Source of the DNA: Acidobacteriota bacterium
GTDB taxonomy: Bacteria > Acidobacteriota > Thermoanaerobaculia > Gp7-AA8
NCBI GenBank assembly: GCA_021781455.1
Contig: JAJXWV010000033.1
Location: 201,169 to 265,168, forward strand
Length of the DNA stretch: 64,000 nucleotides
Direction of reading: 5' to 3'
The position numbers and the translations under genes are program-made. Of this stretch, positions 4,836-60,115 are shown in pieces (the first letter of the stretch is position 1; each line of letters opens with the position of its first letter). The notes under the pieces are model-generated. The model searched no databases. It saw only the letters and a program-made list of their open reading frames with translations, and was not told the origin of the DNA.

Positions 4836-5394
4836 CGGTCACCTCCGCGCGCGTCCACGGACAGCAGCTTCTTGAGCGTCTCCATGGCCCGGAACACGCG
4901 CGTCTTGACGGCACCCTCGCTGCAGCCGGCGATCTGGGCGATCTCCGCATACGACAGCCCCTGGTAGCGCGACAGCAGAATGGCCTCGCGCTGCTCGGCC
5001 GTGAGCTCCTGCAGCGCACGCTGGATGCGCAGCGCGTTCTCCCGCTGCTCGAGCGTCCGGTCGGGGCTCTGGTCGGCCGGCGCGGGGAGCGTCACCAGGA
5101 CGTCCTCGCTCTCCTTGACCTTGTTGTCGGCCTTGCGGAGATAGTCCCGGCACCAGTTGGCGGTAATCGAAAACAGCCAGGTCGACAGCTTGGCGTCTCC
5201 CTGAAACTGATTCGCGTGCTTGATCATCTTCACGAACACTTCCTGCGTGGCATCCTCGGCCGCCTCGGCGCTCTTCAGAAAACGGAGGGCGAAGTTGTAG
5301 ATCCGGCCGCTGTAGCGGTCGTAAATCTCGGATGCCGGGGAGAAGTCACCCCCCTGAACGATCCTCATCAACTCCTGATCGCTCAGGTGTTTCA
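4814..5394 (-). CDS. ECF-type RNA polymerase sigma-70 factor
   Basis: Sigma-70 region 2 (ATQEVFVKM...WLFSITANWCRDYLR) and region 4 (LSYAEIAQIAGCSEGAVKTRVFRA). Start chosen at MKHLSDQEL, which has a GGGGAG RBS. The track ORF extends to 5464. Confidence 0.85.
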
Positions 5395-6792: not shown

Positions 6793-7032
6793 TCATGCTT
6801 CGTCGAACGCTTCTTCGACGAGCATCACCGGGATGTCGCTGACGATCGGGTAAACCCGGTGGCATTTGACACACTGCAGCCCCTGCTCGACGACCGGTTC
6901 TTCGCCGCGGAACTTGTCGCGGTACTTGTCGCGAACGGCCGTCCGCTTCGCCTCGGAAAGAGGCACGAGCTTGACTTCCTGCTTGCAGAGCGGGCAGGCG
7001 AGGATTTCGAGCAGTTCGTTGTCGATCGCCAT
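6793..7032 (-). CDS. Trm112-family (DUF343) small zinc-ribbon-like protein
   Basis: MAIDNELLEILACPLCKQEV...LQCVKCHRVYPIVSDIPVMLVEEA matches the Trm112p-like fold. The longer track ORF 6793..7206 is an artefact of read-through into the GGGTAGC repeat, which translates as PATRYPL. Confidence 0.7.
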   Translation of the reverse strand: MAIDNELLEILACPLCKQEVKLVPLSEAKRTAVRDKYRDKFRGEEPVVEQGLQCVKCHRVYPIVSDIPVMLVEEAFDEA

Positions 7033-7077
7033 TTCGCGCGAACTATACAGATCGAATACGCGACTGGCCAGTCCGAG

Positions 7078-7470
7078 CGGGTAGCGGGTAGCGGGTAGCG
7101 GGTAGCGGGTAGCGGGTAGCGGGTAGCGGGTAGCGGGTAGCGGCCAAAGATAGGCGTTCGCACATGAGTCAGCTGAATTGTTCGAGATGCAGCTAATCGC
7201 TCGCATGTTTTCTGACCACAGAGCACACAGAGAGCACTGAGTTCATCGCGCAGGCGTCTCCGTGTTCTCTGTGCTCTCTGTGGTTAAGAAAACCCGTCCC
7301 CGGCGCCGACACTCGAACAGCCTACCCGCTGAAGTTCCGGAAGAGCCCTGAATTCAGAACGCAGAATTCAGAATGAAGATCGAAGGCCAGAGCGCCGGAT
7401 CGTCCTGCCTCTGCCCGCTCGTCTCCTCAGACGTCCTGCTCCCTACCCGCTACCCGCTACCCGCTACCCG
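7078..7470. repeat. Inverted arrays of tandem GGGTAGC heptamers (7078-7144 forward, 7441-7470 reverse) bracketing a roughly 300-bp lower-GC loop; the loop contains a second hairpin (ccacagagcacacagagagcac / gtgttctctgtgctctctgtgg)
   Basis: Direct reading: about 9 heptamer units on the left, 4 reverse-complement units on the right. The same heptamer occurs at 2165-2190 and 34166-34266. Confidence 0.8.
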
Positions 7471-7491
7471 CTCGTCTATCATTCGCCGCAC

Positions 7492-8556
7492 GTGAGAATC
7501 CTCCATCTCGCCGCCGGCAACCGATGGACAGGAGCGGCTGCTCCCGCCTTTGCGGAAGTGGATGCGCTCCGCGCCGCGGGCGTCGACGCGCACTACGCGT
7601 ACGTCGGCGGCTACAAGCTCGAGCGAAAGCTGGCCGACGTCGCCTTCGCCCATCCATTCATCGAGAAGGCGCAGAACCCCGCCTCGTTTCTGCGAACGCT
7701 GCGCGCGCTGGCGTCGCTGGGGAAGTTCGACATCGTTCACGCGCATCTGACCTGGGACCATTGGGTGGGACGTTTTCTGGCCCGCCGCAGCGGCGCGCTC
7801 CTGGCGCGCACGTTCCACTCGCGGCGGGTGCTGCGCTCCGATCCATTCACGCGCTCTCTCATCGCCCGGACGGCGGTCCTCTGTGCCGTAAACGCCACAT
7901 TCATCGATGCACCGCCGGTCCGACGGCGCGGAGCGCTCTTTACGCCACCGCCCGTCGACCACCGCCAGTTCACCCCGGACGGCGGCGACGTCCGCTCCGC
8001 ATACGGAATCGAACGTTCCGCGCCGCTGGTCGCCGCCATCGGCAAGCTGTCGGCCGGGCGCGGCTTCGAGACCGCGTTGCGAACGTTCCAGCGGATCCGG
8101 ACGCAGATCCCCGCGGCGCGAATGATGATCATCGGACACGGCGAGCACCGCCCCCGTCTGGAGGCGCTCGCGGCAGAGCTCGGCATCGCCGCCGACCTCG
8201 TGTGGGCCGGCTACCACGAAGACGATCTCGCGGCGCACTATCGGGCCGCCAACGTTCTGCTGTTCACCGAGCGCGGCTCCGACGAGGGGCACCGCGCCGT
8301 GCTCGAGGCCATGGCCTGCGGCGTGCCTCCGGTGGCGGCGCCGATCACAGGAATCGAGGCGCTGCTCCGTCCGTTCGAGAGGCAACTGGTTGCCGCGGAA
8401 CGCGTGCCCGAATCGATCGCCAGGACGGCCATCGCGGTCCTGCTCGGCAACAGCCCCGCTGGCGCCGAGCTTGCTGCAGCCACACAGCAGTTCGGTTACG
8501 GCGCATCCGCGGAGCGCCTCTCGAGCGCCTATGAACGTGCAATGGCGCGTTCATAA
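7492..8556 (+). CDS. Glycosyltransferase family 4 (GT-B, group 1)
   Basis: GTG start. C-terminal EAMACGVPPVA-type nucleotide-sugar binding motif and the overall GT4 layout. Confidence 0.75.
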   Translation: MRILHLAAGNRWTGAAAPAFAEVDALRAAGVDAHYAYVGGYKLERKLADVAFAHPFIEKAQNPASFLRTLRALASLGKFDIVHAHLTWDHWVGRFLARRSGALLARTFHSRRVLRSDPFTRSLIARTAVLCAVNATFIDAPPVRRRGALFTPPPVDHRQFTPDGGDVRSAYGIERSAPLVAAIGKLSAGRGFETALRTFQRIRTQIPAARMMIIGHGEHRPRLEALAAELGIAADLVWAGYHEDDLAAHYRAANVLLFTERGSDEGHRAVLEAMACGVPPVAAPITGIEALLRPFERQLVAAERVPESIARTAIAVLLGNSPAGAELAAATQQFGYGASAERLSSAYERAMARS

Positions 8557-12907: not shown

Positions 12908-13365
12908 CTTTGAATTGAAAATTGAAAATTGAAAATTGAAAACGAAAAAAAACGAGAAATCAGTTTCGGCTGCGTCGAACGATCGTCGTCAGAATGGCAA
13001 TCAATTCGCTTGACTCTTCGATCAGCGGCTCAATCTTCTTGTGCTGCTCAGACAGCGATCGGTTCAAAATTCTGAGCCAGTACCTCGCCTCACGCGCTTC
13101 CTTGAGAGCGATTGTGCATTTAGAGATGAAATCCGCGCGACTTTGCGCCGCGTCAGCTTCCTCGAGATTTGCTCCCACAGAGCTCGCCGCATTGCTCCCC
13201 TGCGCACTGGTTCCGCGTAAAGCGGGTTCAGAGTGGTAGATGGAGCGGTGCAAGTCGACGACCGCACAGGCGAATTCAAACACACGTTCGCGCAGCTCCG
13301 AGCCCTTTCCGTCTTCGCGGTCTCGCACTCTCATGTCTTTTCAATTTTTCAATTTTCAATTTCGT
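12908..13365. mobile_element. Low-GC insertion carrying a four-helix-bundle protein gene, bounded by inverted arrays of GAAAATT heptamers (12908-12955 and 13338-13365)
   Basis: ttgaaaattgaaaattgaaaattgaaaa on the left and ttttcaatttttcaattttcaattt on the right. Composition is much more AT-rich than the flanking operon. Confidence 0.45.
12960..13334 (-). CDS. Four-helix-bundle protein (23S rRNA intervening-sequence protein family, TIGR02436-like)
   Basis: 124 aa helical protein with the conserved (F/Y)xL..Q..RA..S motif context typical of IVS/four-helix-bundle proteins. Atypical codon usage. Confidence 0.65.
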   Translation of the reverse strand: MRVRDREDGKGSELRERVFEFACAVVDLHRSIYHSEPALRGTSAQGSNAASSVGANLEEADAAQSRADFISKCTIALKEAREARYWLRILNRSLSEQHKKIEPLIEESSELIAILTTIVRRSRN

Positions 13366-16084: not shown

Positions 16085-16330
16085 TAGGACGATTGCGAAT
16101 TGCGAATTGCCCAACCCGTCACTCTGAGCCGGCGAAGCCGCGGGGGTGGGCGGCTGGGCGGAGCGGCGGAGCGCGGCGAAGAGTCTCTTACCGGGACGAT
16201 TGTTGGGCTGCAACTCGCGTGTGACAGCACCGGCTCAGAGTGACGGGCGCGCCCAGGACAGGCCGGAAAGCCTGTCCCACACGAAGGGCAGGCTCCCGGC
16301 TCTCACCGAAGAAAGTTCGGGGCCACGTCG
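16085..16330. repeat. Family-A composite REP/MITE-like element (modules gtcactctgagccggcg, gagtctcttaccgggacgattg, ggacaggc..gcctgtcc)
   Basis: Highly similar copies at 17371-17640, 29790-29945, 37073-37335, 40685-40805, 49100-49345 and 59925-60115. Fragments at 22385-22430 and 43885-43945. Confidence 0.8.
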
Positions 16331-16647: not shown

Positions 16648-17382
16648 ATGCGACGAACCACACACGTCCTCGCGCTCTTCCTCCTTGCCGCCTGCGCGAC
16701 TGCGCCGGTCATCGTTCCGAACCAGTACGGATTGCGGGTCGTGCCGGACTATGCGACCTACCAGCGCCTGGTGCGGCTCGATCCATCGATGCGGCTTGTG
16801 GACGTCGAGCACGCCGTTCCCGGAATCGGCATCGACGTCCGCTACGCCACGTCGAACAACTTCATGCACCGGCCGCTGTACCCGATCGCGAAGGTGTTCC
16901 TCCGCGCGCCGGCCGCCCAGGCCCTCGCCGACGTCGAGCGCGAGCTCGCGCCGCAGGGCCTCGGTCTGAAGGTGTTCGACGGTTACCGTCCTTACCGGAT
17001 CACCGAAGCGATGTGGGAGCCCATCAAGGATCCGGATTTCGTCGCCGATCCGTCGAAAGGCTCACGCCACAACCGCGGAGCGGCCGTCGACCTCACGCTC
17101 GTCGATCTCCACACCGGCGACGAGATCGCCATGCCCACGCCGTATGACGACTTCACGCCGCGTGCGCGCCAGGACTTCAACGACCTGCCCGCGGACGTGA
17201 TCGCCAACCGCGCGAAGCTGCGCGAGGTCATGGTGCGCCACGGCTTCGACCCCCTGCCGTCCGAGTGGTGGCACTTCGACTACCACAGCTGGCAGAAGTT
17301 CGAGCTGATGGACGTGACGCTCGAGGAGCTGGCCGCGCACCAGATCGCAGAGGGCAGAGCGCAGGCCAACCCGTCATTCTGA
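16648..17382 (+). CDS. ddpX: D-alanyl-D-alanine dipeptidase (VanX/DdpX, peptidase M15D) lipoprotein
   Basis: Signal peptide with lipobox (LLAACATAP). Motifs SRHNRGAAVDLTLVD and EWWHFDY typical of VanX-family zinc dipeptidases. The last codons run into a REP element. Confidence 0.8.
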   Translation: MRRTTHVLALFLLAACATAPVIVPNQYGLRVVPDYATYQRLVRLDPSMRLVDVEHAVPGIGIDVRYATSNNFMHRPLYPIAKVFLRAPAAQALADVERELAPQGLGLKVFDGYRPYRITEAMWEPIKDPDFVADPSKGSRHNRGAAVDLTLVDLHTGDEIAMPTPYDDFTPRARQDFNDLPADVIANRAKLREVMVRHGFDPLPSEWWHFDYHSWQKFELMDVTLEELAAHQIAEGRAQANPSF

Positions 17383-17640
17383 GCCACGCGGTGTGGGACA
17401 GGCTTCCCAGCCTGTCCTCTTTCGGGTGCTGGAAAACCCTCGCCGCACGAGCGGTTGGGTGGAGCGGCGTTGCGCGGCGAAGAGTCTCCAGATTGCATGA
17501 TCGCGGTGAGCCTCCTCACCTGCGCAATCTTTTCCGACCTAACAATCGTCCCGGTAAGAGACTCTTCGCCGCGCTACGCCGCCGGGGGCGGCTCCGCCGG
17601 CTCAGAGTGACGGGTTAGCCCGCGATCTGCGATCTGCCCT
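17371..17640. repeat. Family-A composite REP element copy
   Basis: Shares gtcattctgagcc, ggacaggcttcccagcctgtcc and gagtctcttaccgggacgattg modules with the other copies. Confidence 0.8.
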
Positions 17641-17651
17641 CTGCGATCTCG

Positions 17652-19424: not shown

Positions 19425-19850
19425 TCTTTATGGCTCTTCAGGATATTCAGTGGGTCCGGCGAGGTTTCGAAGGGCACTCCAGCCGTGGAGGCGTGAGGTT
19501 TAAGGCGGCTTAGCCGCCGTAAGAATTTAGCGGCGGCCGTCAGGCCGCCGGAACAAGCGATCGCATCAGCGTACGAGGGCACGAAGTGCCCGACAGAAGG
19601 CCGGGAAACAGACCGACGATCTGTCGCGCGCTGCGCGCGCTCGGACGCTGGGTCGGGCCGATCGGACGGCGGCCTGACGGCCGCCGCTAAATGATGTCGG
19701 CGGCTCCGCCGCCTCGACAAAGCCTTACTGGCAACTTCGACGTCTGACGGCCAGGGGTGAGGGCTTCTCCGTAAACGATTGACTCAGTAGCCATGAACCC
19801 AGCTGTCAGTTTCTGATCTCACCCACGGAAATCCCCGTAGAGCCATCTTT
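19425..19850. repeat. Family-B palindromic MITE-like element (core aatttagcggcggccgtcaggccgccg ... cggcggcctgacggccgccgctaaat)
   Basis: Copies in inverse orientation at 26855-27240, and a shorter copy at 51120-51335. Confidence 0.8.
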
Positions 19851-26807: not shown

Positions 26808-27330
26808 CAAAAAGAAAATGTTGAATGTTGAATGTTGGCCCTACAGGGATTTCCGTGGGTGAGATGAAAATTGGCATTGACAGCTGGGTTCATTGCTACC
26901 GATGGTTTGCGGAGAAGCCCTCACCCCTGGACGTCTGACGTCGAATTTGCCATTGGAGCTTTGTCGAGGCGGCGGAGCCGTCGACATCATTTAGCGGCGG
27001 CCGTCAGGCCGCCGTCCGATCGGCCCGACCCAGCGTCCGAGCGCGCGCAGCGTGCGACAGATCCTCGGTCTGTTTCCCGGCCTTCTGTCGGGCACTTCGT
27101 GCCCTCGTACGCTGATGCGATCGCTTGCTCCGGCGGCCTGACGGCCGCCGCTAAATTCTTGCGGCGGCTAGGCCGCCTTGAAAGTCGCTGCTCCGCGGCG
27201 CGAGTGCACTCTTCGAAATTTCGCCGGACCCACTGAATATCCTGAAGCGCCTGAATATTCAATGTTGTCAGAGTCTCCGGTTCGCCTCTTCATCCAACAC
27301 TCAATATTCAACATTCAACACTTCGCTTTC
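26808..27330. repeat. Family-B MITE copy (26855-27240) sitting between inverted arrays of GAATGTT/GAATATT heptamers (26808-26835 and 27245-27330)
   Basis: aatgttgaatgttgaatgttgg on the left, caacactcaatattcaacattcaacac on the right. The internal 385 bp are the reverse complement of the 19425-19850 copy. Confidence 0.75.
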
Positions 27331-37072: not shown

Positions 37073-37335
37073 GACTCCCGTCACTCTGATTCTGAGCCGG
37101 CGAAGCCGCGGTTCCCGTCACTCTGACTCTGAGCCCGCGAAGCCGCGGGGAAGGGTGGGCGGATGGAGCGGCGTAGCGCGGCGAAGAGTCTCAAACCGAC
37201 GAATCGTCCCGGTAAGAGACTCTTCGCCGCGCTCCACCGCTCCCACCCATCCACCACCCCCGCGTTTCCCCCGGCTCAGAGTGACGGGGCCGCTGGGCCC
37301 GCCGGCTCAGAGTGACGGGAGGCCGCGGCTCCGGC
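37073..37335. repeat. Family-A composite REP element (two tandem gtcactctga-type units plus a gagtctcttaccgggacgattcg inverted pair)
   Basis: Direct sequence comparison with the other copies. Confidence 0.8.
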
Positions 37336-39894: not shown

Positions 39895-40135
39895 CTTTTG
39901 TTACTTTCGGAGTTCCTCGGTTCCTCGGGGTTCCTCGGGGTTCCTCGGGGTTCCTCGGGGTTCCTCGGGGTTCCTCGGAGTTCCTCGGGGACCACTTTTG
40001 ATGATGATACCGAGGAACCGAGGAACCGAGGAACCGAGGAACCGAGGAACCGAGGAACCGAGGAACCGAGGAACCGAGGAACCGAGGAACCGAGGAACCG
40101 AGGAACCGAGGAACCGAGGAACCGAGGAACTTCTA
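39895..40135. repeat. Inverted tandem arrays: (ttcctcgggg)n on the left and (ccgaggaa)n on the right (about 9 plus 15 units)
   Basis: Direct reading. Overlaps the 3' end of sufT by a few nt. Confidence 0.85.
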
Positions 40136-47778: not shown

Positions 47779-49345
<1,567 letters not shown>

Positions 49346-51002: not shown

Positions 51003-51020
51003 GCAGACAGGATAAGACAA

Positions 51021-51370
51021 GTGCTGAGTCCTGAGTGCTGAGTCCTGAGTGCTGAGTCCTGAGTGCTGAGTCCTGAGTGCTGAGTCCTGAGTGCTGAGTG
51101 CTGAGTGCTGAGCGCTGAGCGCCGAGGCGGCGGAGCCGCCGAAAGAATTTAGCGGCGGCCGTCAGGCCGCCGGAGGGTCGGTCGTGTGAGCGTAAGAGGG
51201 CGCGAAGCGCCCGGCAGAAAACTGGGGAGAAACACAAGGATCTGTCGCACGCTTTGCGCGCTCGGACGCTGCGTCGGCTGATCCGACGGCGGCCTGACGG
51301 CCGCCGCTAAATTCTTTCGGCGGCTCCGCCGCCTCAGCACTCGCCCACTCAGGACTCAGGACTCAGCACT
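51021..51370. repeat. Family-B MITE copy (51120-51335) nested between inverted arrays of CTGAGTC/CTGAGTG heptamers (51021-51115 and 51335-51370)
   Basis: About 13 heptamers on the left and 4 reverse-complement units on the right; the MITE core is in between. Confidence 0.8.
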
Positions 51371-52596: not shown

Positions 52597-52680
52597 CATC
52601 ACGGGCTCTTGGTTGTTGGCTCTTGGCTCTTGGGATGGCCGGGGTTGCCCAAGAGCCAAGAGCCAACAGCCAGGAGCCAA
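52597..52680. repeat. Inverted arrays of GCTCTTG/GTTGTTG heptamers upstream of the giant ORF
   Basis: ggctcttggttgttggctcttggctcttgg ... cccaagagccaagagccaacagccaggagccaac. Confidence 0.75.
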
Positions 52681-52690
52681 CTTCGAGGAA

Positions 52691-55600
52691 ATGGACGAAA
52701 GGCCGATCGACAGTGCGCCGGAGCATCCGCACGAGGGGCATCATCGCTCCGCGCGCGAGCGGCAGCGCCGTGGCCCGATGTGGGGCTGCCTGAGGACCAT
52801 CGTCATCGGCAGCATCGCCCTCTTCGCGCTGCTGATCGTCATCATCGGCGGCGGTTACGTCTATCTCGGATCGGCCAGTTTTGCCGATCTGGTCCGGCTG
52901 CGGATCCAGAAGACCCTGGAGAGCCGGCTGGGGCGGGCGGTGTCGATCGGCAGCGTGCAGATCGTCACCTCGCGGCCGCAGCACGTGATCATCAACGACC
53001 TGCGCATCGCCAATGCACCGGGTGCAGTGAACCGGTATTTCGCGACGGTGCGGCAGGTGGAGATCACCGGCGGGGTGGAGTCGTTCTGGGGACGCAACAT
53101 CACCGTCAGCCGCGTCGACATCCGCGACCCGCGCCTGAATTTCGAGATCTATCCGGCGGGCTCGAAGCTCGTGCACAACTTCCCGCACTGGAACCCCGGC
53201 CCGAAGAGCCGCTTCGAGATGGTCCACCTCACCATCGGCCGCCTCTTCGTCACGAGCGGGACGATGGACTTCCTCGACCGTCGTCACGACATTGCCGCGA
53301 CGGCGATGGACCTGGCCTCGGAGATCGACGTCGCGGCGAAAGGCGAAGTGTACGAAGGCATCGCCAACAGCCCGCGCATGACCGTGCGCATCCAGGACTA
53401 CGTGCCGTTCGATGTCGACCTGCGCGGCGGCTTCCGCTACATGCCCGGTGCGCTGGCGCTCAAGTCCATCGCCATGCACGGCCGGGGCATCGAAGCCTAT
53501 GTGGCGGGGAGGGTCGCGCCTCTCAGCGAAGGCATCTACACGCTGAACGTGCGCTCGAACGTCGCGTTGGACCGCGTCCGCGAGATTTTCCGGGTCAACC
53601 GCGTCCTGCAGGGCAATTTCATTCTCGACTCCGTTCTGCACGGAAACGGCGGCGCGTTCTCGCTCACCGGGGCATGGGCGTCGCCGAAGATCAGAGCCGA
53701 CGTCTACGACCTGACCGCGGCAAAGGGAAGGCTCGACGTCAACGGCGACCGCACCATCGTCGAGGTGAACACCGCCAGATACGGCGGAGGCACGATCTCC
53801 GCGCACTACGTCCTGCCGCAGTACTCCGAGCCCTATCCGATGTCGGTGGACCTCAGGTACAACGGCGTCTCGCTCGAGAAGCTATTCACCGACTGGGGCG
53901 TCAAGGACACTGGGCTGCGCGGCGGAGCCACGGGGCGGCTGGCCTATCACTGGAGCAAGGACAAGATCCTCGAAGGTGCCGGACGTGGGAGCGCCACGCT
54001 TTCGCGGACGACGACGGCGTTCTCCAATGCGAAGTACCCGATTCCGCTCGGAGGATCGGCGGACTTCGCTCTCGACAACGGCGTGGTCAGGTTCAGCCGG
54101 GCGTCGTTGACGACGGCGGCAACGTCCGTCGACTTCACCGGTTCGCTGCGCATCGAGGACGTCTACACCGACCTGGCCCTCCGCATTCACAGCGGCGATT
54201 TTTCCGAGCTCGACCGCCTCGGATTCAACTTCGCGCGGTCTGCGGGAAAGAACAAGTACGAGCTGCTCGGGTTAGGCGGGGCAGGCGACATCACCGGCAC
54301 GGTGAAGGGAAAGCTCAAGACGCCGCAGGTCGCCGCGCACATCGCAGGCACAGCCACGAAATACAACGACGCCCTGCTGGGCGACTCCGACATCGACCTC
54401 CGCTACGATGGTGTCAGGGGCCTGCTGACGTTCGATCGCGCGCTCTTCCGCGAGAGCGGCGGCCATCTGACCATGACCGGCACGATCGAGTTCCCGGACC
54501 GGGGGCCCTCGCCTCGATTCGACCTGGCGGTGGATGCAACCGGCTATCCTGTCGATCGCGCCGTCGCCGTGGTGACACTCCCGTTCAAAGGCATCCGCGG
54601 AGCGGGCACCGGACACATGGTCATCACCGGCACGCCCGATCAGGGGCGGGTCACGTTCGGGGGACTGACGATCGCGCAGGGGGCCTCCCAGCTCAAGCTC
54701 AACGGCGACATCTCCTGGTTCCCGGGGAAAGGCACCTCGCGGTTCAATCTCGACATCGCCGCGCGCGATTTTCCCGTCGCCGACATCGTCACCTTCCTCG
54801 ACCTCGGCACGGTGCCGGTGACCGGCCAGCTCACCGGCACGCTCCATCTCGAAGGGACGAAGACGAACCCCCAGGGCGCCGGCGCGATCACCGTTCGCAA
54901 CGGCACGATCTACGGCGAGCCGGTCACGCAGGCCACGGCGGACATCGCCTTCACGCAGGGCAAGCTTCGGGCGACGAACGTGAAGGTCACGGCACCGGCG
55001 GGGAACATCACCGGTGAGGCGGAGCTGGACCTCAACCAGAACAACTTCAGCTACACGATCCAGTCGAGCTCGATCGACCTGTCGAAGGTCAAGCTCCTGC
55101 AGTCGCTGGCCGGCCTGTTAGGCGGCAAAGTCACCATCACGTCGAGCGGCGCCGGGACGTTCAACCAGCCGGAGCTCGTCCTCTCCGCGACGCTCACGGA
55201 CGCCACGCTTCGCGGCCTCGCTCTTCCGGCCGGCACTCCACCACCTCAGCTCTACGTCGCCATCCGCAACGGACAGCTGATCGTCCGCGGTTCCATCGCA
55301 GACATCGTGACGGTCGACGGCAACGGTACGATCGGCGCGAATCTCTCGGTCAATGGCCTGGTCAGGATCGTCGTCGGCGACGTGGCGCGTTTCGCGGCCC
55401 TCTTCCCCTCCACGGCGACGCTGTCGGTTTCCGGGAAGCTCGAAACCGACCTTCAGCTCGGCGGCACGCTGTCCTCCATCGAAGGGATTCGCATCGACGG
55501 CACGGTTCCGGTCCTCGACATCTACCTCTCCGACCACGAGTTCACGCCCGCCCGCTCCATTCGCTTCGGCCTGCGCGGCGGCCGCCTCACCATCGACGAT

Positions 55601-58600
55601 TTCCAGCTGCAGCATCCCGGCGCCTCGTTTTCGCTGGCCGGCTCCGCGGACCTCGTCGGCGCGAAACAGCTGAACCTCACCCTGAAGGGCAACGTGGAAG
55701 CAGCGCTGGCGCAGCTGTTCGTGACCGGGCTGCGTGCCGACGGCCAGGTCGACGTGGCGGCCGCTCTCGGCGGGACCCTGGCTGCGCCGCGGATCACCGG
55801 CACGGCGGAAATCGAGAACGCTCAGTTCCGCTTCCCCGGATTCCCACAGATCATCGACCAGGTCACCGGCACGATCCGTTTCGAGGGCGAGCGCATAAGG
55901 ATCGAGGCTCTTCACGCCACGGTCGGCGGCGGCGAAGTCACCGCCGGGGGCGAGATCGCAGTCAACGGCATCAAGCCGCAGAACGTGAATCTCCGTCTCG
56001 AGGGAAAGGACGTGACTCTGCGGTATTTCGAAGGGCTGTCCATTGCCGGCACCTTCGGCCTGACCCTGCAGGGCGACCTCGAGCGCATGCGCCTCCAGGG
56101 CAGCGTGACCGTGAACCGTGCCCTGTACAGCCGCGATTTCGACTTCGGAACGGCGCTGCTCAACGTCGTCCTGGCACGCCGGACCATCATTCCCGTGGTC
56201 GGCGCGAGCTGGCAGGACAAGGTCAGCCTCCAGGTCCACATCGACGCTCGGGACACCCTGGCCATCCGAAACAACATCGCCGACGTCACCGGCTCCGGAA
56301 ACCTGGACGTGCGGGGAACTCTGGCCAACCCGACGGTCATCGGCACGGTGACACTCGACGAAGGCGGCCGCGTGCGCCTGCAGAGTGTCGACTACCACGT
56401 CATCAGCGGCTCGATCAGTTTTCAGAATCCGTTCCGCATCGATCCGTATTTCGACATCACCCTGGAAGGACGCGTGTCGAGCGTCGGGTATTCGGAATTC
56501 GACCGGGGCGGCCCGATCGACGTGACCATCAACCTCACCGGCACGATCGACCGCTTCACTCCCTCGATCACCAGTGATCCGCCGGCCAGCGACATCACCC
56601 TCTTTTCGCTTCTCGGCCTCGGCGCTCTGGCCGGCCGCACCACCGGCGGCACCGTTCAGGCAACGCCCAATACCGGGGTCCTCGGTGTCGGCCAGTCCAT
56701 CCTGGCTCAGAGCCTTCTGCGCGCGATCCCGTTCGCCAGCGCGTTCAGCTACGACCCTGGCTATCTCGATGTCACCGACGATCCCGGGCCTAAGGTCACG
56801 TTCCAGCGCCAGATCTCGAGCAACCTCCGCGTTCTGGTGATCTACAACCTCAAGACCTCGCTCACCCGGAGCCTTCTGGAGTGGCAGGTAAGTCCCGACT
56901 GGACGCTGCAGTTCACCCAGGACGAGATTCGCAAGGAGTACCGCGTCGAGGCGCGCTTCCGCAGGCGTTACGAAGGACACTGGACCTGGGGTGGCCACGG
57001 GCGGCCCGTGACCATGTCGGCTTCGATCGGCAGGCTGGCCGGCGCCAGAGCCACCCAGCAGTCGCCGGCGGCGACGCCCGCGCCGATGGGCACCGGGCCG
57101 ATGGTCACGCGCATTGCCTACCGCGCCGACGCGGCGTTCGACACGTCGGTACTCAAGCAGTACATCGCCGTGAAAATCGGGCAACCGCTTTCCAGACGCG
57201 CGGTGCAGGCCTCGATCAAGAGCATCTTCGCCACCGGCGACTTCCGCGACATCCAGGTTGAGACCACTCCCGACGGGCCCGGTGTGGCAGTCACGTTCGT
57301 GCTGTCGCTCAATTACCGCATCGCGGAGATCCACTTCGACGGCATCTCCGGCTCACTGAAGGACCGTGCCGATCACGACCTGACCGTGCACATCGGCGAC
57401 GTCCTCTCCCTCAACGCCATCGACCGCAGTGCCACGGCCGTGCAGCAGGGACTCAACGACATCGGCTACCTGGAAGCCTCGGTCGACCCGGAGACACAGT
57501 TCGAGCGCGCGCACAGCCGGGCCGTCATCATCTTCCACGTCACCGCCGGGCCGCAGGCGAAGATCGGGACGGTCCTCGTCGCCGGCAATGTCGCGCCATT
57601 CACTCCCGCCACGCTGATCCAGCAGATGCGCCGCGGTCCCGGCAAGACGTTCAACCGACAGCAGGCGCGCGCGGATGCTTACCTGATGCGGCGTTTCATG
57701 CTCCGCCGCGATTACCGGAAGGCCGAAGTTCGCTACCTCGGCGACACGTACGAGAAAGCCACTGCCACCGTGGCCCTCCGCTACAGCGCGATCTCCGGAC
57801 CGAAGGTGCGTGTCGAGGTCGTCGGTGTGCCGCGGCACGCCGTCCGCGGCGTTCTGCCGTTCTCGCGCAACCAGGCCTACAGCGAGGACGCCATCGAAGC
57901 GGCTGCGCAGAACATCATCACGCTCTATCAACAGCGCGGTTACTACAACGTGGCCGTCGACACCGAAGGACGACTCCAGCCGGACGACACCTGGGTGACC
58001 ACTTTCAACGTCAAGCCGGGGGAACACTTCCGGCTGACCGCGGTCAACTTCACGGGGAACACGAAGATTGCAGCCAGGAAACTGCGCCAGGTCGTCACCA
58101 CCGCACCGCAGGGAGGTATCCGCTCGTTCTTCGCGGGGTTGTTCCACCGCGGCGGGGTCACGCAGGCCCAACTGACCAGCGATCAGGATGCCATCCAGTC
58201 GCTGTACCGGCTCGAGGGGTTCTCCGAGGCCACCGTCGCCACGTCGGTGGTGAGCACGAACGCCGCGGCCGGCACCATGACGGTGACCTTCCCGATCACC
58301 GAAGGGCCGCAGACGATGGTCGCCAGCCTGAAGATCGAAGGGAATGAACAGGTCCCGGCGCGCGACCTTCCGGCGCTGCAGCTCGAGGCCGGCCATCCGT
58401 TCAATCCGCAACTGCTGCGGACGGACATCGTCAACCTGCAGAGCTACTACGCAGACCGCGGCAATGCCGAGGTTCAGATCACGCCGCGCATGGACATCTC
58501 GGACGACAAGACGAACGCAAACGTAACGTACGTCATCGCCGAGGGGCCGAAGATCAAGATCGATGACGTCATCGTTCGCGGCAATACCTACACGAAATCG

Positions 58601-59899
58601 AGCGTGGTGCTGCGCGAGGCAGAGCTGAAGAAAGGGAAGCCGTTCTCCTACTCCTCGCTGCTCGAAGCGCAGCGGAATCTCTACGGGCTCGGCATCTTCC
58701 AGCGAGCGGAGGTGCAGCCCGAGCAGGCCGGCACGGCCGTGGACGAGCGCAATGTGGTCCTGCAGGTGGAGGAAGGAAAAGACCTCACTGTCTCCGGTTC
58801 CCTCGGTGCCGCCAAACAGACGGGAGTCGGCAATGCGCTCGTAGGCTCCGTATCTCTGGCCAACCGCAACCTCTTCGGCACCGGACGCTTCCTCGGAATG
58901 GATCTCGTGGGAAGCAACAACGGCCAGCGGCGAGAGGCCTTCCTCACCTATCGCGAACCGTTCATCGGTCCTTACAACGTGCCGGTTCAGATTTCGATCT
59001 TCAAGAGCGACGAGCAGCGGACGAGTGCGCACATCGTCCAGCGCGGCCTTTCCATCGAGGCGACCAAGATCACCCGCTTCGAGACCCGATGGTCGCTCCG
59101 ATACGAATACCGCATCGCCGACTGCAAGATCGAAAATCCCGGTGACCTTTGTTCGCAGGTCGCCCAGGCGCTCATCCCCGGGATCGATCGCAGTATCTCC
59201 GACGTCAGCATCGCCGACATCACGCCGACGTTCTTCTGGGACAAGCGCGACGATCCCATCGATCCGCACCGCGGCTTCTTCACCAGCGCCTCGGTCGAAT
59301 ACGCGTTCCACGCGTTCGCCGCGCATGCCCAGTTCTTCAAGGAATACGCGCAGGCGTCGTACTACCTGCCCCTCAGCGCGCGCACGGTTTTCGCAGTCTC
59401 GTCGCGCCTCGGGCTGATCCAGGCACTCGGATCGACCGCCTCGGACAACTGCGGCGAGTCCTGCATACCCCTCACCGAGCGTTTCACCGGAGGGGGCGAG
59501 TCTTCGCACCGCGCCTACTCGCTCGACCTCCTCGGCGATCTCTGCTCAGAGGAAAACAATCCCGGACCGGGATGCCGGTCGACTCTCGTGCGTTTGGTCA
59601 ACCCGGACGGCTCGCCCGGCAACGTCGCCGCGATCGGCGGACGCGGCCTGTTCATCACGAATCTCGAGCTGCGCTTCCCGATCTTTGCCAGCGTGGGCGG
59701 CGCGCTGTTCACCGACATTGGAAACGTGTTCGCCGACAGCACCATCCAGTTGAACAACCTGCGCTATGGCGTCGGCGCCGGCATCCGCTATCTGTCACCG
59801 GTCGGCCCGCTGCGCTTCGACATCGGCTACAAGCTTCATCGGGAACCCCAGTACGAGAAGCCCTTCGCGTACTTCATCACGCTGGGTTACGCGTTCTGA
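52691..59899 (+). CDS. Giant fusion protein: TamB/AsmA-like translocation-assembly module (N-terminal signal-anchor plus DUF490) covalently fused to a complete Omp85/BamA-TamA-like module (POTRA repeats plus 16-strand beta-barrel)
   Basis: Single uninterrupted frame of about 2400 codons. N-terminal TM anchor (LRTIVIGSIALFALLIVIIGG), TamB-type repetitive beta-rich body and DUF490 C-terminal region (..DITLFSLLGLG.., LEWQVSPDWTLQFTQD). A roughly 40 aa non-hydrophobic linker follows, then POTRA-like repeats (e.g. IRGNTYTKSSVVLREAELKKGKPFSYSSLLEAQRNLYGLGIF). The Omp85 barrel has the RFTGGGESSHRAYS (RGF/GG) motif and the terminal ...FITLGYAF. The Omp85 part has no signal peptide of its own. Confidence 0.8.
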   Translation: MDERPIDSAPEHPHEGHHRSARERQRRGPMWGCLRTIVIGSIALFALLIVIIGGGYVYLGSASFADLVRLRIQKTLESRLGRAVSIGSVQIVTSRPQHVIINDLRIANAPGAVNRYFATVRQVEITGGVESFWGRNITVSRVDIRDPRLNFEIYPAGSKLVHNFPHWNPGPKSRFEMVHLTIGRLFVTSGTMDFLDRRHDIAATAMDLASEIDVAAKGEVYEGIANSPRMTVRIQDYVPFDVDLRGGFRYMPGALALKSIAMHGRGIEAYVAGRVAPLSEGIYTLNVRSNVALDRVREIFRVNRVLQGNFILDSVLHGNGGAFSLTGAWASPKIRADVYDLTAAKGRLDVNGDRTIVEVNTARYGGGTISAHYVLPQYSEPYPMSVDLRYNGVSLEKLFTDWGVKDTGLRGGATGRLAYHWSKDKILEGAGRGSATLSRTTTAFSNAKYPIPLGGSADFALDNGVVRFSRASLTTAATSVDFTGSLRIEDVYTDLALRIHSGDFSELDRLGFNFARSAGKNKYELLGLGGAGDITGTVKGKLKTPQVAAHIAGTATKYNDALLGDSDIDLRYDGVRGLLTFDRALFRESGGHLTMTGTIEFPDRGPSPRFDLAVDATGYPVDRAVAVVTLPFKGIRGAGTGHMVITGTPDQGRVTFGGLTIAQGASQLKLNGDISWFPGKGTSRFNLDIAARDFPVADIVTFLDLGTVPVTGQLTGTLHLEGTKTNPQGAGAITVRNGTIYGEPVTQATADIAFTQGKLRATNVKVTAPAGNITGEAELDLNQNNFSYTIQSSSIDLSKVKLLQSLAGLLGGKVTITSSGAGTFNQPELVLSATLTDATLRGLALPAGTPPPQLYVAIRNGQLIVRGSIADIVTVDGNGTIGANLSVNGLVRIVVGDVARFAALFPSTATLSVSGKLETDLQLGGTLSSIEGIRIDGTVPVLDIYLSDHEFTPARSIRFGLRGGRLTIDDFQLQHPGASFSLAGSADLVGAKQLNLTLKGNVEAALAQLFVTGLRADGQVDVAAALGGTLAAPRITGTAEIENAQFRFPGFPQIIDQVTGTIRFEGERIRIEALHATVGGGEVTAGGEIAVNGIKPQNVNLRLEGKDVTLRYFEGLSIAGTFGLTLQGDLERMRLQGSVTVNRALYSRDFDFGTALLNVVLARRTIIPVVGASWQDKVSLQVHIDARDTLAIRNNIADVTGSGNLDVRGTLANPTVIGTVTLDEGGRVRLQSVDYHVISGSISFQNPFRIDPYFDITLEGRVSSVGYSEFDRGGPIDVTINLTGTIDRFTPSITSDPPASDITLFSLLGLGALAGRTTGGTVQATPNTGVLGVGQSILAQSLLRAIPFASAFSYDPGYLDVTDDPGPKVTFQRQISSNLRVLVIYNLKTSLTRSLLEWQVSPDWTLQFTQDEIRKEYRVEARFRRRYEGHWTWGGHGRPVTMSASIGRLAGARATQQSPAATPAPMGTGPMVTRIAYRADAAFDTSVLKQYIAVKIGQPLSRRAVQASIKSIFATGDFRDIQVETTPDGPGVAVTFVLSLNYRIAEIHFDGISGSLKDRADHDLTVHIGDVLSLNAIDRSATAVQQGLNDIGYLEASVDPETQFERAHSRAVIIFHVTAGPQAKIGTVLVAGNVAPFTPATLIQQMRRGPGKTFNRQQARADAYLMRRFMLRRDYRKAEVRYLGDTYEKATATVALRYSAISGPKVRVEVVGVPRHAVRGVLPFSRNQAYSEDAIEAAAQNIITLYQQRGYYNVAVDTEGRLQPDDTWVTTFNVKPGEHFRLTAVNFTGNTKIAARKLRQVVTTAPQGGIRSFFAGLFHRGGVTQAQLTSDQDAIQSLYRLEGFSEATVATSVVSTNAAAGTMTVTFPITEGPQTMVASLKIEGNEQVPARDLPALQLEAGHPFNPQLLRTDIVNLQSYYADRGNAEVQITPRMDISDDKTNANVTYVIAEGPKIKIDDVIVRGNTYTKSSVVLREAELKKGKPFSYSSLLEAQRNLYGLGIFQRAEVQPEQAGTAVDERNVVLQVEEGKDLTVSGSLGAAKQTGVGNALVGSVSLANRNLFGTGRFLGMDLVGSNNGQRREAFLTYREPFIGPYNVPVQISIFKSDEQRTSAHIVQRGLSIEATKITRFETRWSLRYEYRIADCKIENPGDLCSQVAQALIPGIDRSISDVSIADITPTFFWDKRDDPIDPHRGFFTSASVEYAFHAFAAHAQFFKEYAQASYYLPLSARTVFAVSSRLGLIQALGSTASDNCGESCIPLTERFTGGGESSHRAYSLDLLGDLCSEENNPGPGCRSTLVRLVNPDGSPGNVAAIGGRGLFITNLELRFPIFASVGGALFTDIGNVFADSTIQLNNLRYGVGAGIRYLSPVGPLRFDIGYKLHREPQYEKPFAYFITLGYAF

Positions 59900-59924: not shown

Positions 59925-60115
59925 CGAAGCGCGCCCCCGTCACTCTGAGCCGGCGGAACCGCGGGTGCGGTGGATGGGCGGGAGCGGTGGAGCGCGGCGA
60001 AGAGTCTCTTACCGGGACGATTGACAGGTGTGAGACTCTTCGCCGCGCTACGCCGCTCCACCACCCGCCCTTCCCCGCGGCTACGCCGGCTCAGAGTGAC
60101 GGAGCCGCGATCATT
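59925..60115. repeat. Family-A composite REP element copy
   Basis: gtcactctgagccggcg / gagtctcttaccgggacgattg / caatcg..gagactcttcgccgcg / ggctcagagtgacgg modules. Confidence 0.8.

Follow-up and report, generated by a model that had tools for sequence, protein, structure and literature searches.

Inverted heptamer arrays between Trm112 and a GT4 glycosyltransferase gene: a compound, nested palindromic repeat that is ordinary for its Thermoanaerobaculia genome

G-rich heptamers are repeated in tandem in the genomes of Xanthomonas (GGGAATC) and Nostoc (GGGGAYT), and each Xanthomonas genome holds 70–75 inverted, or “convergent”, pairs of such arrays (Rehm et al., 2015; PMC4692102). The GGGAATC arrays show a preference for about four units, form G-quadruplexes (G4) in vitro, and are located between divergent genes in 7–8% of cases (PMC4692102). 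Another set of heptamers, the TAACTGA direct repeats of Beggiatoaceae, Cyanobacteria, and Bacteroidetes, includes one inverted case among 170 and was proposed to provide binding sites in mRNA leaders (PMC4679880). Here, we analyzed a 64,000-nucleotide stretch of DNA (hereafter, the window) from a bacterium of the Thermoanaerobaculia (Acidobacteriota; assembly GCA_021781455.1, contig JAJXWV010000033.1), in which an element at 7076–7472, between the genes for Trm112 and a GT4 glycosyltransferase, carries two inverted arrays of the heptamer GGGTAGC. The locus is ordinary for its genome; it is one of a class of inverted short-tandem-repeat pairs that fills intergenic regions of this Thermoanaerobaculia lineage, and the Xanthomonas GGGAATC arrays are its nearest precedent. 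What is new at the level of the class is that the 5′ arm is the G-rich one (in 27 of 30 unit classes), that the arms are about four units long, and that Avd-like PF05635 genes lie inside such brackets in four phyla.

Like the Xanthomonas and Nostoc repeats, the arrays described here have a 7-nt unit that opens with a G-run, are intergenic, vary in copy number around about four units, occur as opposite-strand pairs with the G-rich array first, and could form a stem-loop. However, Xanthomonas has one unit family, whereas the present lineage has at least 37 unit classes, most of them without G-runs, and any G4 here is predicted from the sequence pattern. Furthermore, five of the eight divergent regions in the window carry a pair, as opposed to the 7–8% in Xanthomonas, and nesting, cargo, and concerted turnover of the arms are not described there. 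With the TAACTGA repeats, our arrays share their intergenic location near start codons and a length of two to six units, but TAACTGA arrays are almost always direct and are oriented by the downstream gene. The class also resembles repetitive extragenic palindromes (REPs), BIMEs, and REPINs in being short, intergenic, non-coding palindromes with many copies, family-specific classes, frequent inverted pairing, and fast turnover between strains (PMC3733652, PMC3116915). In contrast to those single imperfect palindromes of 20–40 bp, the present elements are tandem arrays, most of their unit families lack GTAG, no REP-associated tyrosine transposase (RAYT) was seen, and the arms at 7076–7472 have arisen in place. 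A further parallel is offered by the 23S rRNA intervening sequences of Leptospira and Coxiella, where an inverted-repeat stem encloses a PF05635 open reading frame (ORF). There, as here, an inverted-repeat stem holds a cargo in its loop (Pfam family description, PMC10053308), and PF05635 genes lie between arrays both in the window and in four phyla. Unlike the intervening sequences, the locus at 7076–7472 has no PF05635 ORF or remnant and lies outside rRNA genes. In Cyanobacteria there are the STRR heptamer repeats, and small dispersed repeats reportedly nest in hairpins and heptamer arrays; the intergenic heptamer arrays and the nested small repeats would be alike in the two cases, whereas the phylum and the units differ, and inverted pairing is reportedly not the rule in cyanobacteria.

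The left array (7076–7143) was returned by Tandem Repeats Finder as 9.7 copies of AGCGGGT with 100% matches, and contains nine exact GGGTAGC units on the + strand. The right array (7443–7472; 4.3 copies of CTACCCG) contains four GCTACCC units, of which three are exact and one has a single mismatch. The two enclose a segment of 299 bp (7144–7442), which bears out an earlier note, made by a model from the sequence, that had counted about nine forward and four reverse GGGTAGC units around some 300 bp. The 14-mer GGGTAGCGGGTAGC occurs 20 times in the window at one mismatch or fewer, compared with 0.02 expected from shuffles. The outer arms are 299–323 nt apart and pair over 39 nt at 92%, or over 30 nt at 100%, with the flanking CGAG and CTCG included in the pairing. 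Folded as single-stranded DNA, the region 7060–7490 gives a nested structure closed by the outer arms (−128.5 kcal/mol, z = −12). The G-rich array comes first, 5′, on both strands. (GGGTAGC)n conforms to G3N4G3N4G3N4G3, and a quadruplex pattern of at least four G3 tracts with loops of 1–7 nt is matched by (GGGTAGC)9 on the + strand and by (GGGTAGC)4 on the − strand.

Inside the outer arms lies an intact hairpin of CACAGAG-type units (7208–7291), which folds as RNA at −51.3 kcal/mol (z = −7.8), along with half of a GAATTCA/GAACGCA module (7350–7379). The description of the interior as nested repeat cargo, offered in the earlier note, therefore holds, as does its mention of short gaattcagaa repeats, since GAATTCAGAA is present twice, at 7350 and 7364. 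The inner hairpin that it reported is also real, but its arms are not perfect: they are 79% complementary when aligned without gaps, and fold with a 2 × 2 internal loop, one bulge, and one G·T/G·U pair. Likewise, the interior is indeed lower in GC (56.2%) than the window (64.7%) and than the other intergenic regions of at least 100 nt (64.3%), although to call it far below the background was an overstatement.

We define the class by two inverted, intergenic arrays of a 7–8-nt unit in which the 5′ arm is the richer in G. The element at 7076 has the unit AGCGGGT and a 5′ arm with a G minus C of +3, and is pair 1 of 17 in the window. Thus, it cannot be viewed as a special feature of this DNA. The units of the 17 pairs are 7, 8, or 9 nt long, and 11 of the pairs have loops of 25 nt or less. 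They are found in divergent, convergent, and co-directional intergenic regions, usually 2–20 nt from start or stop codons (gene calls outside 1–18.5 kb of the window come from a heuristic based on GC at third codon positions), and the genes that flank them are ordinary housekeeping genes, including those for ProRS, BshA/B/C, Ddl, the Suf operon, and enolase. A uniform census, which drew on the window, L008, L009, L011, and L125–L204 (L numbers denote the other loci compared), covered 542 kb of Thermoanaerobaculia-like DNA and returned 52 inverted pairs, of which 40 have a period of 7 and 11 a period of 8. Outside the lineage there were nine pairs in 548 kb from other phyla, at loci preselected for a GGGTAGC array. 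Units without G-runs, such as AATTGAA, AGTGCTG, and GACCGCA, are arranged in the same way, in arms that are likewise four units long; the median arm is 4.3 units (interquartile range 3.9–4.6), independent of the unit sequence.

The arms also follow a rule of polarity. Of the 46 informative pairs, 41 have more G than C in the 5′ arm (p = 4e-8); counted by unit class, 27 of 30 do (p = 8e-6), and every inverted GGGTAGC-type pair found in any phylum has the G-rich arm first. Hairpin stability explains neither this rule nor that of arm length; a palindrome of the opposite polarity would be equally stable. Ten of the hairpins lie between co-directional genes; five of these fold better as the sense strand and five as the antisense strand, and hence there is no sign of strand-specific selection on RNA. 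The GGGTAGC unit itself is widespread. In a scan of genome contigs that used GGGTAGC alone, arrays of (GGGTAGC)4 or longer were found, mostly solitary, on more than 113 contigs (L012–L124) from many phyla, among them Proteobacteria, Bacteroidota, Actinomycetota (several Streptomyces), Planctomycetota, Verrucomicrobiota, Gemmatimonadota, Cyanobacteria, and Chloroflexota. Consequently, we rejected these arrays as a lineage marker. Among 80 loci that were inspected, eight carried an inverted GGGTAGC-type pair; such pairs come chiefly from a single Planctomycetota genome (BP9.bin90) and from Gemmatimonadaceae.

The history of the locus was followed in relatives gathered by a protein-guided scan; a metagenome scan with the conserved left flank TTCGCGCGAACTATACAGATCG had given no matches. 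The divergent arrangement of Trm112 and GT4 is kept in about 75 relatives, where the commonest intergenic length is 18–33 bp. The region spans 459 bp in the window and, in three relatives, 325 bp (L001), 117 bp (L008), and 28 bp (L009). At about 30 loci it has been enlarged to 63–216 bp by a hairpin at the same spot, whose unit differs in nearly every lineage (Table 1), and in L146, L154, L170, L198, and L199 the region is occupied by non-repeat palindromic elements. As this comparison indicates, the element is specific to its lineage and evolves quickly, and the gain of a hairpin between Trm112 and GT4 is recurrent, with different units in different lineages.

A closer clade, marked by retention of the TATCAT/TATGAT flank, shows how much the contents of the site vary. 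In L001, whose flanks have 93% nucleotide identity to those of the window, degenerate arms (GCGGGCA GCGGTCA GCGG ... CTCCTGCCCGCTCG) surround a complete TTCTGCG/GAATTCA heptamer hairpin. The hairpin of L008 (79% identity in GT4) is a simple GGGGTCG/CGACCCC one whose loop measures 14 nt; L207 (75%) shares the right arm of L008 and has an interior of at least 100 nt, and L205 (72%) has AGTCCTG-type outer arms around a nested (GGCATGA)n hairpin. Alignment of the window with L001 breaks exactly at 7095–7463, and with L008 at 7078–7451; the other breaks are at other array-bracketed segments. When orthologous regions were compared, as the earlier note had proposed, the interior was thus found to have no homologue even in the relative with 93%-identical flanks. 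In L178, L142, and L182, the hairpin abuts the GT4 start codon. At the site shared by L178 (2928–3000) and L142 (328–416), no unit is the same in these two related genomes (GTTGGCG compared with GTCGGCG in one arm, CGCCAAC compared with CGCCGAC in the other). Read from the two sequences, the whole set of units has changed in concert, with the change in one arm compensated in the other. Judged by these alignments, a hairpin has stood at the exact spot between the predicted Trm112 and GT4 core promoters since the common ancestor with L008, and its sequence has turned over since.

The assembly of the present copy can be followed in some detail. The arm unit GCGGGCA/TGCCCGC of L001 is GCGGGTA/TACCCGC in the window, such that both arms have changed while pairing has been kept. 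The ancestral right arm is retained at 7398–7424, and the first copy of a 31-nt tandem duplication takes up 7401–7431 (CGTCCTGCCTCTGCCCGCTCGTCTCCTCAGA), with the second copy starting directly at 7432 (CGTCCTGCTCCCTACCCGCT...). In that second copy, TGCCCGC has become TACCCGC, and ACCCGCT is amplified four-fold before the shared junction CGTCT. On the left, L001 has a proto-array of three degenerate heptamers (GCGGGCA GCGGTCA GCGGCGA), compared with the 9.7 homogenized units of the window. In the window loop, the GAATTCA hairpin of L001 type survives just as its right half, and the CACAGAG hairpin has been acquired. A copy of the GAATTCAGAATGAAGA module is located in L008 at 4900–5030, in the PPIase/DUF4097 intergenic region and not at Trm112/GT4; because L001 and L008 have it in different intergenic regions, at least this module is dispersed. 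No second copy of the interior 7144–7442 was found in the window or in L001, L008, L009, or L011, the 30-nt GAATTCA module being the sole match. Names attached to homologues of its GT4 mark the source as a metagenome-assembled genome of the Thermoanaerobaculia. DNA identical to the window is present in GCA_027388875.1, and five independent contigs carry nine units alike. A near-identical strain, L004 (one single-nucleotide difference in 2.4 kb), has seven units instead of nine; as these are located at the end of a short-read contig, the variant may be an assembly artifact.

These comparisons show that the right arm was rebuilt in place, by the 31-nt duplication followed by amplification of a variant unit, that the left proto-array was homogenized and expanded to about 10 units, and that the loop gathered further hairpin modules, at least one of them from a family found in other intergenic regions. 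Arrays presumably lengthen and shorten by replication slippage, and the arms may stay complementary through template switching within a strand (quasipalindrome correction), selection for pairing, or the two together. New modules would insert preferentially into the loop of an existing hairpin.

The earlier note had placed the element between the end of the Trm112 gene and the start of the glycosyltransferase gene. The two genes are correct, but Trm112 (PF03966; 6793–7032) is on the minus strand with its ATG at 7032–7030, and it is therefore the start of this gene that the element adjoins. The GT4 gene begins with a GTG at 7492 on the plus strand. Since the element lies upstream of both genes, the region is a divergent promoter region. 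A promoter scan returned one promoter-like site, compared with 0.1 expected; it is on the minus strand, stops 9 nt short of the Trm112 ATG, and points away from the element. Its box and spacing are kept in L001 and L008, a TATCAT or TATGAT box is kept before GT4 in L001, L008, and L205, and the boxes of both genes are kept in L001, L008, and L205. The Trm112 mRNA is probably leaderless, and from the position of the boxes both mRNAs appear to be leaderless or nearly so. We infer that the element sits between two core promoters and would not be transcribed from either. The ground state is represented by the 28-bp region of L009 (9970–10003), CAT TTGGCGCGAATTGTACACTTCGCGCGGA TTG, in which two −10 boxes can be read back to back; the two overlap around a TGTACA core. 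Given that most relatives have just 18–33 bp between these genes, and that the conserved promoter boxes are in the flanks, outside the arrays, the earlier suggestion of a regulatory region for envelope-polysaccharide genes found no support in the sense of a dedicated function. No terminator-like site was detected in 6950–7600, and an intrinsic terminator was ruled out on this ground and because the element is upstream of both neighboring genes.

Every PF05635 gene (23S rRNA intervening-sequence or Avd-like four-helix bundle) for which both flanks were available lies exactly between inverted heptamer arrays, and this holds across four phyla (Table 1). In the Thermoanaerobaculia, two LigB-family genes flank the cassette in conserved synteny, and its (AATTGAA)4/(TTCAATT)4 arms are kept. 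We found no paper on PF05635 together with heptamer arrays, nor any on such repeats in Thermoanaerobaculia. At 7076–7472 there is no such cassette: tblastn with three PF05635 proteins found neither an ORF (~120 aa) nor a remnant of one in 7144–7442, and with no credible Pfam match either, a decayed or coding PF05635 gene in the interior was ruled out. The G-rich 5′ arm in 27 of 30 unit classes, the arms of about four units whatever their sequence, and the PF05635 genes in bracket loops in Acidobacteriota, Planctomycetota, Patescibacteria, and Bacillota are the reasons to consider that a dedicated mechanism, and not slippage alone, writes or maintains the inverted arrays. The class would then be a self-propagating, intervening-sequence-like one, with the present locus an ORF-less nested derivative, which we regard as unlikely.

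We think it probable, if by no means certain, that the element is compound, nested, REP-like palindromic repeat DNA, non-coding and selfish or neutral, which has been resident since the ancestor shared with L008, has been shaped by slippage, arm homogenization, and nesting, and has no function specific to GT4 or Trm112. Any activity would be at the level of DNA, as a cruciform with a 30–39 bp stem, and possibly as a G4, at a place where divergent transcription collects negative supercoils. Several observations weigh against this explanation. The hairpin has persisted through about 20% protein divergence with compensated arms, as selection on a functional structure would also give. Purely neutral slippage would not predict the strong G-rich 5′ polarity (41 of 46 pairs) or the arms of about four units, both of which hint at a function or at some directional mechanism. 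Several loci share unit families, and the four AGTGCTG-type pairs all begin in one phase; the copying of whole elements accounts for this better than independent origin in place.

The main rival to repeat DNA that arose in place is that the whole unit, or its hairpin modules, is REP/REPIN- or MITE-like mobile DNA copied in trans, for example by a RAYT or IS200-type Y1 transposase, with the arrays as terminal inverted repeats and the interior as a passenger. Such an origin would account for the presence of the GGGTAGC, AGTGCTG/AGTACTG, and GACCGCA families at several loci each within 64 kb, for array termini that are in the same phase at different loci, and for the cargo of the wide pairs; it would also suit the GAATTCAGAATGAAGA module in different intergenic regions of L001 and L008, and the CACAGAG hairpins both here and in the distant L139. 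In addition, every GGGTAGC unit includes GTAG, the motif at which RAYTs cleave REPs (PMC3733652), but this motif is absent from most of the other unit families in the window. Moreover, REPs are single imperfect palindromes of 20–40 bp with a GTAG or CGTC tag at one end, whereas the arms here are tandem arrays of 30–68 nt, 299 nt apart, and they derive in place from ancestral arms, as the 31-nt duplication and the L001 proto-array attest. Assignment to the MITEs (miniature inverted-repeat transposable elements) fared no better: inverted termini are present, but there is neither a target-site duplication (or other flanking direct repeats) nor a second copy of the interior in the window or the compared loci. 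Pfam returned no transposase among the genes called at 17.6–62.8 kb, and the annotation of the first 18.5 kb (taken from L003, a record identical to the window) lists none either. On balance, we consider mobilization in trans to be possible but doubtful.

The remaining explanations give the element a role. Negative supercoils accumulate between outward-facing promoters, according to the twin-domain model, and a cruciform or G4 driven by them might insulate or couple the transcription of Trm112 and GT4, as has been proposed for the Xanthomonas heptamers, whose GGGAATC repeats form G4 in vitro and make up 70–75 inverted pairs per genome (PMC4692102). The G3N4 pattern with its G-rich array 5′ on each strand, the location exactly between two outward-facing core promoters, the general G-first polarity, and the retention of a hairpin with compensated arms since the L008 split are all consistent with such a role. 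However, most relatives do without a hairpin in an intergenic region of 28 bp, most unit families have the same architecture and 4-unit arms with no G-runs, and the interior is freely replaced between close relatives, so we hold a functional DNA structure to be quite unlikely. In our estimation it is very improbable that the element yields a structured RNA, whether a small one encoded in the interior (as the earlier note had suggested) or a long GT4 5′ leader subject to RNase III or translational control. The predicted structure is very stable, the hairpin would be transcribed in L178, L142, and L182 if the GT4 promoter lies upstream of it, and the operon-internal PF05635 cassettes keep such stems, recalling the RNase III-processed 23S rRNA intervening sequences. 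Yet, at gathering thresholds, the covariance-model search proposed in the earlier note gave no Rfam match anywhere in the window; with E relaxed to 10, the region 6900–7600 returned just sub-threshold miRNA-like hairpin noise (best, MIR156 with 24 bits, where the threshold is 62). The interior lacks conservation, RNA stability shows no strand bias, the sole promoter-like site points away, and the conserved −10-like box is downstream of the element, 9 nt from the GTG. There are also no tRNA or tmRNA genes, and no coding signal was seen in the element, which has no ORF of more than 59 codons and yields only two chance-level matches in six-frame Pfam searches (E 0.02–0.04, below cut-offs). Equally remote, in our judgment, is a phase-variable switch in which heptamer copy number alters promoter geometry and turns GT4 or Trm112 on or off. 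Promoter-associated repeats do give phase variation in other bacteria (PMC12721329), and near-identical strains may differ in unit number, with seven as opposed to nine, but the seven-unit variant is the one at a contig end. In addition, the left array is upstream of the Trm112 −35 box, and the right array keeps its period until 4 nt short of the −10-like box of GT4, so that gain or loss of a 7-nt unit leaves the sequence at a fixed distance unchanged. As both arrays are outside the predicted promoters, a change in copy number cannot alter the −35/−10 spacing of either.

To return to the class, the wide pairs of the window carry cargo, either the PF05635 gene (12913–13362) or dispersed palindromic elements (17341–17649, 26817–27320, and 51020–51370). 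One such dispersed element, of ~215–420 bp and with 83–89% identity between copies, is located at 19432–19845, 26836–27251, and 51125–51335 and has internal inverted repeats TTTAGCGGCGGCCGTCAGGCCGCCG; two of its three copies are inside heptamer-array brackets of different units (AATGTTG and AGTGCTG). A second palindromic family is dispersed at 37075–37321, 59930–60109, 16115–16202, 49135–49326, and 17537–17616. The copy at 17365–17625 has a CAGAGCG/GCGATCT array bracket and GTCATTCTGAGCC-type termini, and GTCATCCTGAGC termini similar to those of the second family fill the Trm112/GT4 region in L154 and L170. The largest pair of the window (39907–40130) has arms of unlike period, (TCGGGGTTCC)x8.6 and (ACCGAGGA)x15.2, and pairing of these requires a 2-nt bulge per unit. 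The repeats also affect gene and genome records. ORF calling from the first start runs into them, for example in a 137-aa “Trm112” call at 6793–7206. Similarly, a 2428-aa ORF at 52613–59899, a TamB–TamA/BamA-like fusion with DUF748/TamB, four POTRA repeats, and an Omp85 barrel, probably has its true start further downstream, because the called start overlaps a GGCTCTT/CCAAGAG hairpin. Short-read contigs end inside arrays (L004 and L007), and we therefore conclude that the arrays fragment assemblies of these genomes; many PF05635 homologues (P0122–P0230) are on contigs of 500–700 bp. The coordinates of the features are collected in Table 1.

Table 1. Features of the element and its flanks, PF05635 genes in array brackets, unit families of the window, and hairpins at the Trm112/GT4 site of relatives
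Feature	Position or locus	Strand	Description
Left outer arm	7074–7143	+	CGAG, then (GCGGGTA)x9.7; G-rich, G3N4 quadruplex-type motif matched nine times
Spacer, unique	7144–7207		Without ORF and without homologue elsewhere
Inner nested hairpin	7208–7291		CACAGAG/CACAGAGAG-type units; ~32 base pairs, 2 × 2 internal loop
Spacer, unique	7292–7349		Includes one solo right-arm unit CCTACCCGCT at 7321–7330
Relic right half of heptamer hairpin module	7350–7379	+	GAATTCA GAACGCA GAATTCA GAATGAA GA (GAATTCAGAACGCAGAATTCAGAATGAAGA); homologous to the complete L001 hairpin
Relic of ancestral right arm and junction	7398–7431	+	GATCGTCCTGCCTCTGCCCGCTCGTCT...; matches the L001 right arm GATCGCTCCTGCCCGCTCGTCT; first copy of the 31-nt duplication (7401–7431)
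Right outer arm	7432–7474	+	CGTCCTGCTCC, then (CTACCCG)x4.3 and CTCG; second copy of the duplication
Predicted Trm112 core promoter	7042–7070	−	−35 TGGCCA at 7070–7065, 17-nt spacer, −10 TATAGT at 7047–7042; in the flank, outside the element
−10-like TATCAT	7477–7482 (part of 7477–7494)	+	9 nt before the GT4 GTG; in the flank, outside the element
PF05635, bracketed	window, 12960–13334 (pair 12913–13362)		Thermoanaerobaculia
PF05635, bracketed	L134, L174, L182/L184, L203, L208, L209, L211		Conserved site between two LigB-family genes
PF05635, bracketed	L041, 3081–3630		Thermoanaerobaculia (Acidobacteriota)
PF05635, bracketed	L087, 1852–2480		Planctomycetota
PF05635, bracketed	L095, 6855–7199		Patescibacteria
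PF05635, bracketed	L101, 3812–4144		Christensenellaceae (Bacillota)
GGGTAGC family	2167, 7076, 34174		
AGTGCTG/AGTACTG family	24385, 35825, 44887, 51020		
GACCGCA family	41273, 42650		
AACCGAGG-type family	39907, 41356, 43723		
GGTTGCGC-type family	21688, 33231, 61545		
Hairpin in relative	L008, L207		Unit GGGGTCG
Hairpin in relative	L205		AGTCCTG outer arms and nested GGCATGA hairpin
Hairpin in relative	L178		Unit GTTGGCG
Hairpin in relative	L142		Unit GTCGGCG
Hairpin in relative	L182/L184		Unit AAGCAGA
Hairpin in relative	L191		Unit GGTTGCTG
Hairpin in distant relative	L139		Unit CACAGAG, the unit type of the inner hairpin 7208–7291
Hairpin in relative	L165		Unit GGGTTTG
Hairpin in relative	L162/L168/L169		Unit GAGCTGTT
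Hairpin in relative	L180		Unit GGTCTCGC
Hairpin in relative	L190		Unit GGTTGCGC
Hairpin in relative	L011 and relatives		Unit CGCGGTYK

Being ordinary repeat DNA for its genome, the locus at 7076–7472 matters little in itself. The class to which it belongs is a clean natural experiment on the origin and persistence of palindromic intergenic repeats, in which one 28-bp site has been filled independently about 30 times with different units. Close relatives show both arms changing in concert, and the arms obey rules of polarity and length that go beyond hairpin stability. At the practical level, the arrays break short-read assemblies of Thermoanaerobaculia and cause ORF callers to over-extend gene starts. 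Finally, the class connects Avd-like PF05635 proteins, which are enigmatic, with a defined architecture of DNA or RNA in a setting other than rRNA genes and diversity-generating retroelements.

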